Virus record (IMG/VR): IMGVR_UViG_2703719347_000005
Location: 1-26,614 of that record
Reading direction: 5' to 3' (one strand)
From: a virus
Taxonomy: Duplodnaviria > Heunggongvirae > Uroviricota > Caudoviricetes
DNA: 26,614 bases
The position numbers and the translations under genes were made by a program. Under the pieces are notes generated by a model, which saw only the letters and a list, made by a program, of their open reading frames with translations, did not search any database and had not been told where the DNA came from. Positions 2,667-11,105 of this stretch are shown one piece after another. How positions within the stretch are numbered: position 1 is the first letter of the stretch; each line of letters opens with the position of its first letter.

Positions 2667-3932
2667 CTACTTAACCTGTAACAGGTCGGAGTATCTTGTA
2701 GTATAGCAAGGTGAAAGCATTTCCCGCTTCATCTGCCAGGCCGTTTGGATCCCCTGCCCTGCAAAATACAGCGTTCCCCTTCCGTCTTTCGCATTGAGAT
2801 GGTCGAGTACTTCCATCAGTTTCTCGCTATTCCGCCGTGGCACGTTATCATCAAACAAGTTTAGCTGGGCCACCCCCTGACTGTAGAAATCCCCCAGCAT
2901 CACTCCGGCTTTCTGGTAGCGATACCCGTCTCGCCAGATTGCATCGAGACATTCCGTCGCCGCTGTGATTATGTCCCGACTGTCCTGGGTCGGGGTCAAT
3001 AGTTTCACTGATGCACTATTGCCGTAGTACGGCTCATTCAGAGCAAATGGGCTGGTTTTGACGAATGCAGAGATAAAGCGGCAGTACTGATGCTCACCAC
3101 GGAGTTTCTCCGCGGCACGGGATGCGTATAAGCATATCGCCTGGCGCATCTCTTCGTAGGTGGAAATCCGCTGCCCAAAGCTGCGACTACAGACAATCTC
3201 CTGCTTTACCGGCGCGAACTCCTCAAGACCGAGACATGGCTCTCCGCGTAGCTCCCGCACGGTTCGCTCCAGTACCACATTAAAATGCTTCCGGATAAAA
3301 CGGATATCGGTATCCGCCAGTTGCAGTACAGTTTTAATCCCCATGGCCTCCAGTTTTTTACTGATGCGGCGCCCGACGCCCCAGACCTCATCCACCGGAA
3401 GCAAAGCCATCAACTTCCTCTGTCTTTCCAGGTTCGACAGATCCACCACGCCTCCGGTCTGCCGCTGCCACTGTTTCGCGGCGTGATTGGCCAGCTTCGC
3501 CAGGGTTTTAGTCTGGGCTATGCCGACGCCGACCGTTAGGTGTGTCCTGCGCAGAACCGTCTCGCGAATTTCCCTGCCAAAGTCGGTAAGGTCGCGACAA
3601 TTCCGAACTCCTGTCAGGTCGCAAAATGCCTCATCAATACTGTAAATTTCGCAGCGTGGAGAGAGTTCCTCCAGCGTTGTCATCACTCGGTTGGACATAT
3701 CGGCATAAAGCTCATAGTTGCTGCTAAACGCGATAATACCGTGCCGGCGAAACACGTCCTTTTGCTTGAAATAAGGCTCACCCATTTTGACGAAGGGCTT
3801 CGCTTCTGGCGAGCGGGCGATCACACAGCCGTCGTTGTTTGACAGAACGACCACCGGACGCCCTTTCAGGTCAGGACGAAATACGGTCTCGCACGATGCA
3901 TAAAATGAATTCACATCACAAAGCGCAAACAT
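2667..3932 (-). CDS. umuC: Translesion DNA polymerase V catalytic subunit UmuC (Y-family polymerase)
   Basis: Starts MFALCDVNSFYASCE with the SIDEAFCDLTG catalytic motif, ~421 aa. ATG is at 3930-3932, one nt after the umuD stop. The ORF-track 5' extension to 3992 is rejected. Confidence 0.9.
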   Translation of the reverse strand: MFALCDVNSFYASCETVFRPDLKGRPVVVLSNNDGCVIARSPEAKPFVKMGEPYFKQKDVFRRHGIIAFSSNYELYADMSNRVMTTLEELSPRCEIYSIDEAFCDLTGVRNCRDLTDFGREIRETVLRRTHLTVGVGIAQTKTLAKLANHAAKQWQRQTGGVVDLSNLERQRKLMALLPVDEVWGVGRRISKKLEAMGIKTVLQLADTDIRFIRKHFNVVLERTVRELRGEPCLGLEEFAPVKQEIVCSRSFGQRISTYEEMRQAICLYASRAAEKLRGEHQYCRFISAFVKTSPFALNEPYYGNSASVKLLTPTQDSRDIITAATECLDAIWRDGYRYQKAGVMLGDFYSQGVAQLNLFDDNVPRRNSEKLMEVLDHLNAKDGRGTLYFAGQGIQTAWQMKREMLSPCYTTRYSDLLQVK

Positions 3933-3933
3933 C

Positions 3934-4353
3934 TTAGCCAGCTGATTTAATGATGTACGTAACCACCCCGAACACGTCGAGAGTGTCCTCACTACCGACG
4001 ACTATTGGCGAATATGCAGGGTTCATTGGGTTAAGCTGAACCCGCGGATGCAGTTGCAGCTTCTTAACGGTGAATTCCCCATCCACAGCAGCAATAACGA
4101 TATCGCCATGAACTGCTGTTCTTGAGCTATCCACGACCAGAAGATCACCTTCCCCTATGCCTGCGTCTTTCATGCTGTCGCCGGCGGCTTTGACAAAATA
4201 CGTCGCACTTGGGTGGTTAACGAGCAACTCGTTCAGATCAATACGTTGCTCAACATAATCCTGCGCTGGACTAGGAAAGCCGCACTGCACAAGGTCACTG
4301 TACAACGGGAGCAGCATGATCTGGCGTAACTCAACGGGCGTGTAGAACTGCAT
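3934..4353 (-). CDS. umuD: UmuD, LexA-like self-cleaving accessory subunit of polymerase V
   Basis: 139 aa from ATG 4351-4353 ([13 protein letters not shown]...). Conserved Cys-Gly cleavage site (LVQCGFPSP), Ser (GDSMKD) and Lys (TVKKLQL) present. Confidence 0.9.
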
Positions 4354-4372
4354 AATAAACTCGCTCACAAAA

Positions 4373-4567: not shown

Positions 4568-4693
4568 ATGTCACAGACGGACTTGCTGATTGTTGTTTTT
4601 ACGCTGGGCATTTTAGCCTTTGGCTATTCCATATGGTTCATTTCGAACAGAATACTCTGCTCAATATTTCATAGACTTACAAAGAATATATGA
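4568..4693 (+). CDS. Small hydrophobic ORF (41 aa; MSQTDLLIVVFTLGILAFGYSIWFISNRILCSIFHRLTKNI), putative small membrane protein
   Basis: ATG-initiated ORF below the ORF-track cutoff with one predicted transmembrane helix. Divergent from umuD and on the same strand as the terminator at 4900-4934. Weak RBS. Confidence 0.25.
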   Translation: MSQTDLLIVVFTLGILAFGYSIWFISNRILCSIFHRLTKNI

Positions 4694-4816
4694 ATTGGGA
4701 TGGTATAGACCAAAATTCATGGTCCTTGCTCCTCGACGTCGGAAGGTACTTACAGATCATCTTCGCTCTTAACCTATCACATCGGCACCTACTCCATGAT
4801 GTAACAGCTCAGACCA

Positions 4817-4934
4817 GAAATATCTGGAAGCTTTAGGCATCTTCTTGGAAGATAGACGAGCGCAAAGACGCACACAGCAATGATGTTATGTAGTATTTTC
4901 CCCTTGAGTGTGCCTGCTCAAGGGGATTTTTTAT
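4817..4934 (+). repeat. Direct repeat copy 1 (~118 bp), homologous to 7965-8079, ending in an intrinsic terminator
   Basis: Shared GAAATATCTGGAA, a 22-bp identical core GCGCAAAGACGCACACAGCAAT (4860-4881 and 8008-8029), and a terminator hairpin with conserved loop. Confidence 0.6.
4900..4934 (+). terminator. Rho-independent terminator (plus strand) overlapping the 3' end of the invertase gene
   Basis: CCCCTTGAG-tgtgcctg-CTCAAGGGG followed by ATTTTTTAT. The minus-strand version has no U-tract, so it is not the invertase terminator. Confidence 0.6.
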
Positions 4935-5487
4935 CGCCGCATTGTACCGGCAAATTTTTGTAAATAGTCTTCACATCTACGCCTATCACATCTGCGATCT
5001 GTTGCCGAGTAGCGCCGTTCTCCAGCATTCTGCGGCACCGCTCCACCACTTCTTCAGTCATTACCCGGCGGCGGCCGCCGACTCTCCCCTGCTCCCTCGC
5101 TGCGGCTAACCCGGCTCGGGTACGCTCCACTATCAGCTCGCGCTCCATTTCTGCCAGGGCGCTCATGACGTGGAAGAAGAATCGCCCTGCTGGCGTCGAA
5201 GTGTCGATCGAGTCGGTAAGGCTGCGGAAATTCACCCCACGCGCCTGCAACTCTGACACGAGCGTAATCAGATCGCGCACGCTGCGGCCCAGCCGATCCA
5301 GTTTCCAGACCACCAGCACATCACCCGGGCGGAGCCGTCGCAGCGCTCGCTTCAAACCTGGCCGCCGGGCATTCTTCCCGCTGGCCATATCCTCGAAAAC
5401 CAGCTCACATTCTGCGCGGATCAGCGCGTTTTTCTGTAAATCGAGGTTTTGATCCCCGGTTGATACCCTCGCATAGCCAATCAGCAC
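4918..5487 (-). CDS. Serine DNA invertase, Gin/Hin/Pin/Cin family
   Basis: MLIGYARVSTGDQNLDLQ...VVWKLDRLGRS...FRSLTDSIDTSTPAGRFFFHVMSALAEMERELIVERT closely matches Gin/Pin over the catalytic domain. GTG start at 5485-5487 with SD AAGGAG 7 nt upstream. C-terminal ~45 aa diverge from what I recall of Gin/Pin. Confidence 0.9.
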   Translation of the reverse strand: MLIGYARVSTGDQNLDLQKNALIRAECELVFEDMASGKNARRPGLKRALRRLRPGDVLVVWKLDRLGRSVRDLITLVSELQARGVNFRSLTDSIDTSTPAGRFFFHVMSALAEMERELIVERTRAGLAAAREQGRVGGRRRVMTEEVVERCRRMLENGATRQQIADVIGVDVKTIYKNLPVQCGDKKSP

Positions 5488-5510
5488 GATCTAACTCCTT
5501 GAAATAGCTG

Positions 5511-5539
5511 ATTGTAAAAAGCCGCGGCCATTCGCTCAA
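5511..5539 (-). promoter_or_regulatory. Putative sigma70 promoter of the invertase gene, -35 overlapping crossover site L
   Basis: On the minus strand: -35 TTGAGC (5539-5534), 17-bp spacer, -10 TACAAT (5516-5511). The -35 hexamer lies inside the left half of the 26-bp site. Confidence 0.3.
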
Positions 5540-5556
5540 ACCCTCGTTTGGGCGAA
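5531..5556. other. gix/hix-like 26-bp recombination site L
   Basis: TTCGCTCAAACC-CT-CGTTTGGGCGAA: two 12-bp half-sites (TTC....AAACC) around a 2-bp core, as in gix/hix/cix. Exact reverse complement occurs at 11080-11105. Confidence 0.65.
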
Positions 5557-5923
5557 GCCTCTTTTTGGAGCAAAAAACATGGCCGAACTTAACCCGCCAC
5601 TGGGCACGACGACGCCGGAAATATTCATGGACAACGTTAAGCGCGCTGACGAGCTGGTTAACGGTCCGGCCGGAACGGTTGACGACCGCGGCGGTGAACC
5701 ACTCGATACCTGGCGCCAGATGATGGCGAAAAACGATGAGGTCAGGCAGAACCTGATCCCGCTCAGTAAGCAATACCAGACGCTGGCAGCGGCGCAGGCG
5801 GATATCGCGAATATTCCGGTGGGGTCGACCACGTATTACCGTAGCCCGGATGACAACGCGTTAGCTGTAGAAGTGATCAATAACGCCGGTACGCTGCAGC
5901 CTACCGGGCGGAAAATGCCATCT
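5531..5923. repeat. Left arm of ~390-bp inverted repeat (site + RBS + first ~115 codons of fibre A)
   Basis: First 48 bp are 100% identical to revcomp of 11058-11105; the next ~345 nt are roughly 85-90% identical by eye to the fibre B 5' end. Confidence 0.85.
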
Positions 5924-7918
5924 TATTCTTCGCTACGCGGGGCGAACATTCTGTTTGATGCTCTGAATGAATATTCAGCAAATGATCCTAAATTCGGTGC
6001 GTGGGACTGGTATCGCGGAGCAGTGATCACCTTCAGCACTACTGATGCCAATATTTCGTTACCGACTCCAGTGGCACAGTATTCCGGCGTATGGTCTGCA
6101 GATAAATATTATGACCTTGCCCGCCTGCCTGTAAGGGTTGGTGATAAGTTAACCTTTTCCGTGCTGGCGTGGTTCCAGGATGCCGGTGCTATGTTCCATA
6201 TTTTCTGGATGTCCACCGCTGGCGCTGTTATTTCGTCTAAATCACAGCTTGCTCTGGCCGCAGGTATAAATACGCCGGTTATCACAGATGTCATTCCATC
6301 CGGCGCATCCTACGTCAGGATCCGGGTTGAAAATACTACGGCAGGGATATTTAAGGTCGGTGCTTATGCTGCTGCGTTGGGGGCTATTCAGCCTGATTTT
6401 GTTCGCGCCACGCCGGATAAAACTTATCTGTCAGCCGTCATATCATCCGGTATTTCGGGGTTAACATCACGCGTCGATGCGCTCCAGGGAGCTATCTCTG
6501 TTGGTTATGCTTATGCAGCTGCCTGGCAAGTCGGGAAATTTATCAACCCAACTACAGGGGCCATCACTGATAACTCTGCGCTGAACTGCGCAATCATTCC
6601 GCATTCCGACGGGGATGGCTGGCTGGTGACAGCCCTTGTGACAGGATCGGCGACTGCTCTGGCCGTGTACATGAACAGCGCCGGGATGGTATTGGGTGTT
6701 GAAGGGCGGGGAACGGCAACCCCGCAGCAGTATACTAATTATCGTCTTAACGTTCCTGCCGGGACAACACAGATCGGTATAACGGGTCGTAATTCTGCGG
6801 AAATTGCTGTTAAAAAACTTGCTGTCGTTGAGACGGCCAAAGTACTGGCATCGATCGATTCTCTGGATGTCAGGGTACAAACAATAGAGGACTCTCTTGT
6901 TTATGATTTTATTAAACACGACGTCACGATTACCTCAGGAGCATATATAAACCGTGCTGATGGCAGTGTGGTGGCAAATGCTGCATTTGACTGTGCAATT
7001 TTTAATTACACAGCAGGAGACCGCTGGAAAGTCACAGCGAGGGTTAACGGCAGTGGAGTTTCGCTCGCGGTGTATATGAACAGTGCCGGGACGGTTATCG
7101 GCACCGAAGGGAACGGTACTACAGAATCGGTGGACTACACCGATTACGAGCTAACACCTCCTTCCGGCACCGCCAAAATCGGGATCACCACCCGTATAGC
7201 CGTCCCCATTATTGCCAAAAAATATGTAGTCGTTCCCGGTGGTAGCACGGTCAGTCCGTGGTCTGGAAAAGTCATCGATGTGATGGGTGACAGCAACGTT
7301 GCTTATAACAAATGGCAACCTCTTGTCGCGGCAGAACTGGGCTGCACTTTTCTGAATCACGGGGTCGGTGGTTCGAAAATAGCCAAACCGGATAGCTCCT
7401 CAACGCAAATCAGCATGTGCGACGATGTGCGAATCAATGCTCTGGATACATCGGCGGCGGCGTGGATTTGCGGTCCGTGGGCAACAAACGACTGGGCGCA
7501 AAATATTCCGATTGGAAGTATCACCGACTCAGTGAATACAACCGTTTACGGCGCGCTGAACATCATCGCTCAGAAACTGCGGGCGCGGGCCCCAACAAAA
7601 CCTATCCTGTGGGCCACGCCGTTCAATGGGGACTATGATTCTCCACGTTCAGCGGCATGGGTTGACGGTGAAACAAATGGCTATGGGCGGGTTTCTGACT
7701 ATGCAGCGGCCATACGCGCCGTGGCGTTGCGATATGGATTCCCCCTAATAGACCTTAACGCTGACTGTGGCTGGACAAAATTCAATAGCACTAGTTTTTT
7801 ATTAACCGAGGGGGATACAAATCCGTCCCGCATCCACCTCAATGCGGACGCGGGGCCTGTGCGTATTTCCTCACTGATAACCGATCGGCTTACTGCCCTA
7901 CAGAAACTGGTGGGCTAG
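5579..7918 (+). CDS. Alternative tail fibre A (779 aa): shared N-terminal anchor, three repeated ~100-aa modules, C-terminal GDSL/SGNH-like esterase domain
   Basis: N-terminus MAELNPPLGTTTPEIF... shared with fibre B for ~115 aa. C-terminal region carries MGDSNVA, HGVGGSK, WATNDW and a late His (SRIH), reading like SGNH hydrolase blocks. Currently antiparallel to the tail operon. Confidence 0.7.
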   Translation: MAELNPPLGTTTPEIFMDNVKRADELVNGPAGTVDDRGGEPLDTWRQMMAKNDEVRQNLIPLSKQYQTLAAAQADIANIPVGSTTYYRSPDDNALAVEVINNAGTLQPTGRKMPSYSSLRGANILFDALNEYSANDPKFGAWDWYRGAVITFSTTDANISLPTPVAQYSGVWSADKYYDLARLPVRVGDKLTFSVLAWFQDAGAMFHIFWMSTAGAVISSKSQLALAAGINTPVITDVIPSGASYVRIRVENTTAGIFKVGAYAAALGAIQPDFVRATPDKTYLSAVISSGISGLTSRVDALQGAISVGYAYAAAWQVGKFINPTTGAITDNSALNCAIIPHSDGDGWLVTALVTGSATALAVYMNSAGMVLGVEGRGTATPQQYTNYRLNVPAGTTQIGITGRNSAEIAVKKLAVVETAKVLASIDSLDVRVQTIEDSLVYDFIKHDVTITSGAYINRADGSVVANAAFDCAIFNYTAGDRWKVTARVNGSGVSLAVYMNSAGTVIGTEGNGTTESVDYTDYELTPPSGTAKIGITTRIAVPIIAKKYVVVPGGSTVSPWSGKVIDVMGDSNVAYNKWQPLVAAELGCTFLNHGVGGSKIAKPDSSSTQISMCDDVRINALDTSAAAWICGPWATNDWAQNIPIGSITDSVNTTVYGALNIIAQKLRARAPTKPILWATPFNGDYDSPRSAAWVDGETNGYGRVSDYAAAIRAVALRYGFPLIDLNADCGWTKFNSTSFLLTEGDTNPSRIHLNADAGPVRISSLITDRLTALQKLVG

Positions 7919-7964
7919 TTAACAGTGCTTATCGCGTAGTAGTGTTTCTAAAATGCTGTAATAA

Positions 7965-8079
7965 GAAATATCTGGAAATGTTTTGAATTATCCAGGAGTA
8001 TATCAACGCGCAAAGACGCACACAGCAATAATGTCATTCATCGCTTTTCCCCCGGCGTGCCTCCGGGGGGATTTTTTAG
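7965..8079 (+). repeat. Direct repeat copy 2 (homolog of 4817-4934) downstream of fibre A
   Basis: See copy 1. Stem sequence differs from copy 1 with compensatory changes (CCCCTTGAG/CTCAAGGGG versus CCCCCGG/CCGGGGG) while the loop (GTGCCT) is conserved. Confidence 0.6.
8049..8079 (+). terminator. Rho-independent terminator downstream of fibre A
   Basis: CCCCCGG-cgtgcct-CCGGGGGG followed by ATTTTTTAG on the plus strand. Confidence 0.6.
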
Positions 8080-8173
8080 TCCTTTATGACGTCGTCTTGT
8101 CCCGTCCTCAGGGAAGCTATAGTGGTCTTATTTCACGTGGTAACTGAAACTGAATACAGTACGAGTCAGCTTA

Positions 8174-8890
8174 TTACGCGATTGATAAAATCCCTTCATA
8201 GCTCTGAGTGACGAGGTCAACCATATCCATTTTTTCAGCCTGAGAGAGTATTCCGCCCGCCCACACCCCTGTCATTGCAATATCCACAGCGCCTAAAAAA
8301 TCTGACGTGATATAGGAGTAGCCAGCATAAATCGACTTATTCGGAACAGGGATTGCGCGGGCGGTAACAGCGACCTGTTCAGTCGATAACAGCTCACTGT
8401 TCGTCATTTTATGAAGCTGAACCATAGAGTTATTCACATCGAGGAAAACCAGATGGAATTTACTGGTGTCCAGTGGAGTCGCGAGGGTGGCGGTTGCTGT
8501 CCCGCTTGACCGCCCCACAATCCCCCTGATTTGAGGAATGGCCGGTTCAAAAACAAACGTATCCCCCTGCGGTTGTACAGCAGAGCCGAGATAGTTACCC
8601 ATGCCCAGCGCTCTGGTAGTGCTTTTAGGCCGGAGTAACACCATCATGGTTTTAACCGGGTTATCCGTGACTTTCAGATCATAACCCCCCGCACCAACAC
8701 CACCCGTAAACCAGTACGTGTTGATGACAGGTGCCCCCACTATGGTTGGCTCTTCCCCAAAAATAGCCCCAAAGTTCTGGCTGCCAAATGTGGCAATGCT
8801 CGCGATAGACGGCTGCGGATAACTCGAACCAATAATACAGTCATCATCCCAGACGGCATCAACATTAATAGATAATCCCTGATTAGACAT
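8174..8890 (-). CDS. Hypothetical protein (238 aa) co-transcribed downstream of fibre B; possible fibre accessory or assembly protein
   Basis: Start ATG 8888-8890 (MSNQGLSINVD...), 7 nt after the fibre B stop, with GAGG SD overlapping that stop. The ORF-track 5' extension to 8989 overlaps fibre B and is rejected. No family recognised. Confidence 0.5.
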   Translation of the reverse strand: MSNQGLSINVDAVWDDDCIIGSSYPQPSIASIATFGSQNFGAIFGEEPTIVGAPVINTYWFTGGVGAGGYDLKVTDNPVKTMMVLLRPKSTTRALGMGNYLGSAVQPQGDTFVFEPAIPQIRGIVGRSSGTATATLATPLDTSKFHLVFLDVNNSMVQLHKMTNSELLSTEQVAVTARAIPVPNKSIYAGYSYITSDFLGAVDIAMTGVWAGGILSQAEKMDMVDLVTQSYEGILSIA

Positions 8891-8897
8891 AAGTACC

Positions 8898-11057
8898 TCA
8901 CAACGTGATTTCAAACATGACGCAATAGTTATCCATACGGATAACCTCGCTATTAAGGGTAAAACTGATAATGTCGCCCTGGCTGTCACGCAGACAACCG
9001 CGCGGCCCGGTCAGGCGACCCGGTGACTGGCCGGTGGTGCCGCCGTGAAAGGCATACTGAAGAATGGCCCCGGCAGGGATATCCGCTGCCGTTGAGACAG
9101 TCACCGCGTCATAACGGATATTGAGGCTGGTCAGCGGGATAATCGCACGTGTGTCAGGGTGCAGTAGCCGGAAACCATAATTACCCGGATCAGAAACAAT
9201 GCTGGTATCAAAGCTCAGCCGACCCACCGGATTCAGCCACACCGTAGCGGCGCGGCCCTGGCGTTGATGACTAACTGGCATCAGTGGTTTTGCCGCTTTG
9301 CCGTCAACCAGCGCCCGCTTTTCCATCACGGAAATATAAAGCCCCTGAATATAGGAACTTCTGGCGGTGAGGTGTGCGCCATCCGTGTAATCGTGAATGT
9401 ACATCGGGTTCGTGAGATAGACATTTTCGCGTGTCTGCGCCAGCTCCAGCAGCGCCATCGGAATGGTGGGATAGGCTGTGTTCGGCGTCCGGTTTATCCA
9501 GCTGCTGAACTGATAAACAAAAATCGGCACATGGACTTCTTCGCCGCACACAGCTGAGGCGTGGGCATCGATCCGCTGTTGCATGGTGTCGAAAATAGCC
9601 TGATAGTCTGCTTTGGTGGTGCCTTTCGTCTGGTCTGCTTCGCCCTGCATCCAGTACATCGCCACAGGCCGGTAGGTTTTCCCGAGCTCCTGAGCGCGGG
9701 CGTAACCATAACTGATATCATCGAAAACTCGCTGAATGTACTTTCCGGGATACGCCGCCAGCACATCAATGGGTTGACCGCCCTCCGCCGGAACAGAACC
9801 CAGAATGATCAGATCATCCGGGTTAAAGCCATAGTTCTCGGCAATCATCAGTTCGTACCAGCCGCGAATGCTGGCCCCCATTGGGGTTTCCCATGCCTGG
9901 CCGTTATCGGTGTTTTTATACGTCTCGACGTAGGGAACCAGCTGAGCATGGTTTTCTGCCGAAGTGCCGGAGCCATCCTGCGCCCGTGCCCCACCGATAA
10001 AACGCAATGCGGTATACAGCGCGGCTATCGTAATCAGGGCCTGAGTATTCACGCCAGCGGCAAGCGATTGTCCGTAACCGATTTTATGGGCAATATCCGG
10101 CAGGCGTGAGTAAATGGACTGATTAAAATAGCGCAGAAATTCAGGGGAAATAATCGCTTTAACTTCCAGAGTTTCGGCTTTCAGCGATTTTACCTCTCCA
10201 TGATTCGCTTCAATTTTCCCCGCAGCAAATGCCCCGTTTTTTTTGATACCCACAGCCGGACGATTTAACGTATCACGCCACGCCATAACGAAATCGCGGA
10301 ATGTCGCAGTAGAAATGCTGGCGTTGGCTGGTAACCCTAAGATACTGGCAATCGTAAGATTGTTGATCTCAGCCTTCCCTGATTTCAGTACCCCTTTTTT
10401 ATTAATGGCAAAACAAAGCCGTTTAAGGGTGTCATAAACTGAAACAGCGTTACCGTCAGCCACTAATGATAAAGCAGAATTCCCGATATTCAGACGTGAT
10501 GACGAGATGATCGACGAAATAAATTCATCCGCTGAGAGCTTTTTTAATTCTGCTTTATTCGCCTTAATCCACCCGGCAAGCAACCGGCCCGCCTCATCCA
10601 GCCCTACCGAATAATTTTTTCGTTCATCCATAAAGGCAAGAGACATACCCGCTGGCGCATTCTGGCTGAACGTTGCTCTGATCAAATCAGTCATGATATT
10701 GACCAGCTCCTGAGATGGCATTTTCCGCCCGGTAGGTTGCAGCGTCCCGCCGTTATTCATGTACTCGTCCGCCAGCGCCCAGACGTCCTGGCTGCGAACA
10801 TAGGTCGTGGAGCCAACGGGGATATTCGCGATATCTGCCTGCGCTGCCGCCTCATTCATATACTGCTTGCTGAGTGGGATCAGGTTCTGCCTGACCTCAT
10901 CGTTTTTCGCCATCATCTGGCGCCAGGTATCGAGCGGTTCACCTGCGCGGTCGTTAATCGTTCCGGCCGGACCGTTCACCAGTTCGTCAGCGCGCTTGAC
11001 GTTATCCAGGAATATTTCAGGCGTCGTCGTTCCCAAAGGCGGGTTAAGTTCGGCCAT
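8898..11057 (-). CDS. Alternative tail fibre B (719 aa): shared N-terminal anchor, SASA-like acetylesterase domain, extra C-terminal domain
   Basis: N-terminal ~115 aa shared with fibre A. Residues ~325-585 carry YGQSLAAG, WMQGEAD and DGAHL, consistent with SASA/DUF303-type SGNH esterases. Colinear with the tail operon, so this is the presumably expressed fibre. Confidence 0.7.
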   Translation of the reverse strand: MAELNPPLGTTTPEIFLDNVKRADELVNGPAGTINDRAGEPLDTWRQMMAKNDEVRQNLIPLSKQYMNEAAAQADIANIPVGSTTYVRSQDVWALADEYMNNGGTLQPTGRKMPSQELVNIMTDLIRATFSQNAPAGMSLAFMDERKNYSVGLDEAGRLLAGWIKANKAELKKLSADEFISSIISSSRLNIGNSALSLVADGNAVSVYDTLKRLCFAINKKGVLKSGKAEINNLTIASILGLPANASISTATFRDFVMAWRDTLNRPAVGIKKNGAFAAGKIEANHGEVKSLKAETLEVKAIISPEFLRYFNQSIYSRLPDIAHKIGYGQSLAAGVNTQALITIAALYTALRFIGGARAQDGSGTSAENHAQLVPYVETYKNTDNGQAWETPMGASIRGWYELMIAENYGFNPDDLIILGSVPAEGGQPIDVLAAYPGKYIQRVFDDISYGYARAQELGKTYRPVAMYWMQGEADQTKGTTKADYQAIFDTMQQRIDAHASAVCGEEVHVPIFVYQFSSWINRTPNTAYPTIPMALLELAQTRENVYLTNPMYIHDYTDGAHLTARSSYIQGLYISVMEKRALVDGKAAKPLMPVSHQRQGRAATVWLNPVGRLSFDTSIVSDPGNYGFRLLHPDTRAIIPLTSLNIRYDAVTVSTAADIPAGAILQYAFHGGTTGQSPGRLTGPRGCLRDSQGDIISFTLNSEVIRMDNYCVMFEITL

Positions 11058-11105
11058 GTTTTTTGCTCCAAAAAGAGGCTTCGCCCAAACGAGGGTTTGA
11101 GCGAA
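10713..11105. repeat. Right arm of ~390-bp inverted repeat (fibre B 5' end + RBS + site R)
   Basis: Reverse complement matches 5531-5923; outermost 48 bp are identical. Confidence 0.85.
11080..11105. other. gix/hix-like 26-bp recombination site R (inverted relative to site L)
   Basis: TTCGCCCAAACG-AG-GGTTTGAGCGAA on the plus strand, the exact reverse complement of site L. Confidence 0.65.

Follow-up and report, generated by a model that had tools for sequence, protein, structure and literature searches.

We lean slightly toward the view that the 91-bp gap separating a serine DNA invertase gene from its invertible tailspike segment forms a compact Gin-type control module. In this module a weak promoter would have its -35 hexamer inside crossover site L and would be subject to negative feedback by the invertase. 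The window, which is the whole stretch of 26,614 nucleotides that was analyzed, is a Klebsiella lambdoid prophage, and its closest phage records are KPP5665-2 and Kpn_R1. The features of the module and of the segment beside it are collected in Table 1.

Table 1. Positions of the invertase control elements, crossover sites and tailspike genes in the window
Feature	Position	Strand	Remarks
Invertase gene, 189 aa, GTG start	4918-5487	minus	catalytic serine recombinase and HTH_7 domains
Candidate recombinational enhancer	5398-5457	minus	CDS nt 31-90, codons 11-30
GTG start codon	5487-5485	minus	invertase gene
Shine-Dalgarno (SD) AAGGAG	5500-5495	minus	7-nt gap, then the start codon
Predicted transcription start	5504-5505	minus	6-7 nt past the -10; placed by promoter geometry
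-10 hexamer TACAAT	5516-5511	minus	5/6 consensus match; within invariant TTTACAAT
Spacer GAATGGCCGCGGCTTTT, 17 nt	5517-5533	minus	between -35 and -10
-35 hexamer TTGAGC	5539-5534	minus	4/6 consensus match; positions 4-9 of the outer half-site
Crossover site L, 26 bp, TTCGCTCAAACC-CT-CGTTTGGGCGAA	5531-5556		imperfect palindrome, 12+2+12; outer half 5531-5542 faces the invertase
Central asymmetric dinucleotide CT	5543-5544		putative strand-exchange point; about -40/-39 from the predicted start
Invertible segment, two complete convergent tailspike genes	5557-11079		flanked by sites L and R
Silent tailspike gene	5579-7918	plus	own SD and ATG 22 nt inside the site
Expressed tailspike gene	8898-11057	minus	own SD and ATG 22 nt inside the site; no Pfam match
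Crossover site R, identical 26-mer, inverted	11080-11105		between a J-like tail gene and the expressed tailspike gene

The sequence-only reading had described a sigma70-like promoter on the minus strand followed by an SD and a GTG start, and every one of these elements was found where it had been placed. Its claim that the -35 hexamer sits within site L was also borne out, since 5534-5539 falls inside 5531-5556, and the promoter that thus overlaps a recombinase site is backed by conservation. The minus-strand sequence from 5560 to 5480 is gcttcgcccaaacgagggTTTGAGCgaatggccgcggcttttTACAATcagctatttcAAGGAGttagatcGTG, and the leader from the predicted start would be about 17-18 nt long. A consensus promoter scan of 4600-6000 returned the invertase promoter as its sole match. 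With the same criteria, 1.0 ± 1.0 matches are expected by chance per 1400 bp on both strands, and the probability of at least one match in a random 91-nt intergenic sequence on one strand is 0.028 under a Markov model and 0.044 with shuffles. A hexamer match at this level (P of about 0.03-0.04) is suggestive only, and the strong support for the promoter is comparative. The plus strand of the gap gave no match in the consensus scan and, therefore, the idea that the silent tailspike gene has a divergent promoter here was dropped.

The comparison set consisted of 80 viral-contig loci with invertases 88-99% identical to that of the window, which made 81 loci with the window itself. Their upstream regions aligned without a single indel, and the distance from the site edge to the start codon was 43 nt in all 81. 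The block TTTACAAT, which includes the -10 hexamer, was 100% invariant (81/81), and the GGTTT core and CGAA end of the half-site were invariant or nearly so. For comparison, only 1 of the 46 fourfold-degenerate sites in the invertase coding region of the same sequences was invariant. The eight spacer columns that adjoin the site (-43 to -36) were hypervariable, while the length of the spacer was constant. Two classes of site occur among the relatives, class A with the outer half GGTTTGAGCGAA, which is nearly invariant within that class, and class B with GGTTTACGCGAA. In class B, whose sites lie within tail-fibre coding sequence, TTTACG at 18-bp spacing replaces TTGAGC at 17 bp, and the -10 and all distances are the same as in class A. 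This combination of conserved hexamers, a spacer of fixed length and changeable sequence, and a suitable distance to the SD is characteristic of a functional sigma70 promoter. The degree to which the hexamers and their spacing are conserved greatly exceeds neutral expectation, and they very likely mark such a promoter. Taking the match and the alignment together, we are confident that the invertase has a real promoter of the sigma70 type, as its sequence indicates.

One further element of the leader is conserved. TTTCAA, at 5499-5504 of the window between the -10 and the SD, has five columns that are invariant in the 81 loci and one column that differs in a single sequence. It shares bases with both the predicted transcription start and the beginning of the SD, and the reason for its conservation is not obvious.

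At Gin/Hin-type sites, strand exchange occurs at the central 2 bp. Sites L and R share the 12+2+12 architecture of hix and gix sites, and they are the outermost 26 bp of a 393-nt inverted repeat (5531-5923 and 10713-11105, 85% complementary) that bounds the 5.5-kb segment. The repeat is perfect over 68 bp from the outer site edge (5531-5598 = 11105-11038). It had been claimed that the first 48 bp inside each end are identical; the identity stood, and the length was corrected to 68 bp from the outer edge, or 42 bp past the inner edge. The related claim that the promoter is regenerated in either orientation was right in its outcome and wrong in its reliance on the inner repeats, as the -35 lies in the fixed outer half-site. 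Since this hexamer is on the invertase side of the CT at 5543-5544, inversion never moves it, and the core promoter is the same either way. Only the DNA upstream of about -40 changes hands on inversion.

The outer half of site R carries the same TTGAGC in the window without a following -10, and this half at site R was also found with the hexamer in two related phages. Thus, the outer half-site holds no feature that is specific to site L, and the -35 is borrowed from the recombinase half-site rather than separately evolved. A -35 specially selected at site L was rejected on the same ground, because the outer half of site R is the same in the window and in the two related phages. Matches of 54 bp in many Klebsiella phage records were also considered as orphan sites that lack an invertase. 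This was set aside, as the two records that were checked are prophage predictions ending in or just past the tailspike gene.

Because the crossover site is palindromic, it would also form a hairpin in the late mRNA. In the late transcript (11105-11060, minus strand, equal to 5531-5576 on the plus strand), the site folds into an 11-bp hairpin that is followed by GCCUCUUUUU just before the tailspike SD. The hairpin looked terminator-like in the scan and had a fold z-score of -1.9. The hairpin might have an attenuating or modulating effect on tailspike expression, or might simply follow from the symmetry of the site.

The invertase matched the Pfam families PF00239 (Resolvase, 1.6e-49) and PF02796 (HTH_7, 1.3e-05), and it aligned with the Gin structures 4m6f and 3uj3 at an E-value of 1e-71 over residues 1-182. 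Its identity to Gin, Cin, and Pin is 62-66% (Gin 62%, Cin 66%), and the GYARVST motif is present with S9 as the catalytic serine. By homology, the enzyme is a serine DNA invertase of the Gin/Hin/Cin/Pin family. Its first residue aligns with Met1 of Gin, Cin, and Pin, and the N-terminus is collinear with theirs residue for residue. An in-frame TAG two codons upstream makes the GTG the first possible start. On the N-terminal alignment with Gin, Cin, and Pin, which upholds the GTG proposed by the sequence-only reading, we take this codon to be the true start; Mu gin is also annotated with GTG.

The GTG is not a conserved device, as 55 of the 81 close relatives start with ATG, 24 with GTG, and 2 with TTG. 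The GTG relatives (24/81) always have AAGGAG as their SD. Overall, AAGGAG is paired with GTG or TTG in 25 of 25 loci, and the weaker AAAGGG or AACGGG with ATG in 55 of 56. Compensatory evolution was rejected as an account of this pairing. The combinations behave as two linked haplotypes within 14 nt and, thus, independent compensation events cannot be claimed. Both combinations are compatible with modest translation. Elsewhere in the family, GTG starts were found in 12 of 82 Gin/Pin-type loci and 27 of 69 Hin-like loci sampled, and weak start codons recur in each clade sampled.

Synonymous sites at CDS nt 31-90 showed a conservation of 0.89-0.91 in the 81 loci, compared to about 0.73 in the rest of the gene. 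Within this stretch, GCGCAGAATGTGAGC (5417-5403) is a perfect match to the degenerate Fis consensus and contains an 11-nt run that is invariant in the 81 loci. The P1 enhancer is annotated at nt 19-90 of cin, a position equivalent to that of the candidate here. No second Fis site was clearly identified in the candidate enhancer. These data suggest that CDS nt 31-90 is probably a Fis-bound recombinational enhancer and, with it, the control module matches the standard architecture of the Gin/Hin family.

The closest known counterparts are Gin with its gix sites in phage Mu and Pin in e14. The enzymes belong to one family, as the identity to Gin and the E-value to its structures show, and in both systems a 26-bp site immediately precedes the start of the invertase gene, which lies just outside the segment and points away from it. 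In Mu gin and e14 pin, the site is followed by about 54 nt and then the start codon, and the window has a layout of this kind. Mu gin also resembles the window in that its annotated GTG follows a GGAG-type SD, and Mu Gin has an enhancer-like region in the 5' coding part. Of 82 Gin/Pin-type loci (L086-L165; Mu, L083, 4562-4570; e14, L084, 4652-4660), 80 carry the motif TGGCAT[CG]AT. Wherever the site was located (81 loci), the distance from the motif to the site edge is exactly 22 nt, and the motif lies 25-27 nt before the start codon. This fits an extended -10 promoter for gin and pin. The differences are in the geometry. The -10-like box of Gin/Pin is 22 nt from the site compared to 14 nt here, which is 8 bp closer and, thus, the site there abuts the -35 position rather than containing it. 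The gap from site to start is 53-55 nt in Gin/Pin and 43 nt here. The half-site is TTCCTGTAAACC in Gin/Pin, in contrast to TTCGCTCAAACC here, and the DNA-binding domains diverge. In Mu, the crossover occurs inside the tail-fibre coding sequence, whereas here it is in the 5' leader of complete tailspike genes; in Mu and P1, inversion swaps the C-terminal halves of one gene, whereas whole genes are swapped here.

Salmonella Hin is likewise an enhancer-dependent invertase, and a 26-bp hixL (TTCTTGAAAACCAAGGTTTTTGATAA) lies directly upstream of hin with 61 nt to the ATG. Unlike the invertase gene of the window, hin is inside the invertible segment, and the payload of that segment is a promoter and not tail genes. 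No -10 was found 16-18 bp from the -35-like hexamer at Salmonella hixL, and overlap of the site with a -35 was not evident there. A candidate -10 for hin, TAAAAT, read by eye, lies about 25 nt from the hix site. P1 has Cin and cix with an enzyme of the same family, tail-fibre switching, and an enhancer in the 5' coding region. In contrast to the window, cin is transcribed toward the segment and cixL overlaps its 3' end. P1cin and P2cin are annotated far from any cix site and, therefore, P1 has no overlap of promoter and site. This placement of cixL and the distance of the annotated promoters from it led to the rejection of P1 as a model.

Since the distance between the site and the -10-like box is 22 nt in Gin/Pin and about 25 nt in Hin, direct overlap of the -35 is not a conserved feature of the family. 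As judged from these alignments, a promoter beside the crossover site is common among the invertases, and direct embedding of the -35 is specific to the clade of the window. A Xenorhabdus group has a conserved TATTAT about 12 nt from GGTTTTTTATAG, which is half-site-like, and this group may share the direct embedding.

In the mechanism we propose, the weak, constitutive sigma70 promoter would give a short-leader mRNA from about 5504-5505 that is transcribed away from the segment. A promoter of its own would allow the invertase to be made in the lysogen without activity of the late operon. Relative to the predicted start, site L extends from about -52 to -27. An invertase dimer at the site would cover this stretch and compete with sigma region 4 and RNA polymerase; it should exclude sigma region 4 and, thus, bring about negative feedback. 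With a promoter of moderate strength and a GTG start, little enzyme would be made and inversion would be rare. In this scheme, we infer the transcription start, the occupancy of site L, repression, and low translation. From the geometry and the analogy with Tn3 res, we would give negative autoregulation by the invertase an even chance.

In P22 challenge-phage assays, repression was reportedly seen when Hin occupied a hix site overlying a promoter, and low-level expression of hin has been described. The nearest precedent is the res site of Tn3, where a serine recombinase is autoregulated through promoters inside its recombination site, which are repressed when it binds (PMC7157771). The Tn3/gamma-delta resolvases have a homologous catalytic domain (E 1e-29 to 1e-33), and their own promoter is in the recombination site, as it appears to be here; binding represses that promoter at res (PMC7157771) and would do so here by analogy. 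They differ in that res has three dimer sites compared to the single 26-bp site here, and in that res controls two divergent genes and serves resolution, not inversion, with no need for a Fis enhancer. A full-text literature search, with the 1980s classics outside its coverage, found no mapping of hin, gin, or cin promoters and no invertase autoregulation.

A possible explanation, though on the unlikely side, is that the promoter is real and its overlap with the site has no regulatory effect, with the invertase too scarce or its dimer binding too transient. The -35 would then be in the site merely because the half-site consensus GGTTTGA resembles TTGA and the intergenic space is short. Since the TTGAGC half-site recurs at R with no promoter, the overlap may have come about through packing alone, without selection for an operator. 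This explanation also gains from the lack of anything peculiar to site L in the outer half-site, and from the other clades, where the -10-like box is 8-11 bp further off and the site only abuts the -35 position. It is harder to reconcile with the site-to-start spacing held in every one of the 81 loci and with the 17-nt spacer, which is invariant in length despite free sequence change, as this suggests that the geometry itself is under constraint. Protein over -52 to -27 is also hard to square with unhindered binding of the polymerase. The opposite position is that site L is a dual-use operator, a derived trait of this Klebsiella prophage clade in which initiation and invertasome assembly are mutually exclusive. 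Synapsis would be blocked by RNA polymerase at the promoter and disturbed by transcription passing the enhancer, which lies within the first 90 nt of the gene. Bound invertase would switch off its own synthesis, and a homeostatic rate of host-range switching would result. We regard this stronger version as doubtful.

We consider it improbable that the hexamers are not a working promoter and that the gene is instead reached by late-operon transcripts reading through the segment or by transcripts that begin within it, with TTTACAAT and TTTCAA acting, for example, in protein binding or translation. Taken alone, the consensus match is close to chance level, and a scan for minus-strand intrinsic terminators found none in the two stretches that it covered, 4600-6000 and 7700-9100; late read-through could thus add to invertase expression in lytic growth. 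However, the upstream DNA varies with orientation and from relative to relative, while the invariant block is at the place of a -10, 24-29 nt before the start codon with the SD between them. Invertase made in the prophage state also needs a promoter that is independent of late transcription, and the invertases of Mu and P1 are recorded with expression signals of their own. Even more improbable is that invertase at site L activates its own promoter in the manner of a class II activator. Here the geometry is the whole case, with the center of the dimer site at about -39.5 overlapping a -35 that matches consensus at 4/6. This center is 2 bp off the canonical -41.5, positive feedback would oppose keeping the recombinase scarce, and we know of no self-activating serine recombinase. 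The precedent of Tn3 res is one of repression (PMC7157771). Negative feedback on a promoter of its own therefore remains the reading we prefer for the invertase.

As the site is in the 5' leader, 22 nt before the ATG, inversion would swap whole tailspike genes, with their SD and start codon, behind the late operon. The cassettes of the window were found in flipped positions in related prophages. The cassette at the J side of the window is flipped beside the invertase in L249 and L326, with 97% identity over about 3 kb, and the cassette at the invertase side is flipped at the J side in L279 and L313, with 89-96% identity. The partner of each flipped cassette in these four loci is not the one it has in the window. 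All four have an unchanged 26-bp site L, and the promoter, as read in loci from the same contigs, is the same apart from one or two base changes in the spacer. No exact isomer pair of one prophage was found among the related prophages. These arrangements are consistent with inversion plus cassette exchange among Klebsiella prophages, and the cassettes may also have been reshuffled by routes other than inversion.

The segment and its surroundings showed several other features. Residues 571-757 of the silent tailspike form a C-terminal GDSL/SGNH hydrolase domain, which suggests a receptor-modifying esterase activity of the deacetylase type. As listed, an ORF at 8174-8989 (271 aa, no Pfam match) shares 92 nt with the 3' end of the expressed tailspike gene, and the true start of the ORF is probably further downstream. 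A small gene similar to this ORF follows the tailspike in phage KPP5665-2. Beyond the invertase, at 2667-4368 on the minus strand, is a pair of umuD-like (Peptidase_S24, 3934-4368) and umuC-like (IMS family, 2667-3992) genes, apparently cargo of the prophage.

Specialists would find nothing surprising in the layout described here, an ordinary variant of that of Gin in phage Mu. Weak start codons are already familiar, as are recombinase promoters within or beside recombination sites, and the value of the finding is therefore mainly in annotation. The gain is a well-supported promoter, a start codon, a crossover site, and a probable enhancer for a widespread family of invertases in Klebsiella prophages. 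The arrangement is also easy to test, and it lends itself to a clean construct design for autoregulation. If the proposed module is true, a temperate Klebsiella phage would hold its tailspike-switching enzyme low and self-limited in the lysogen in either orientation, and the level of the invertase would set the frequency of progeny with the alternative capsule specificity.
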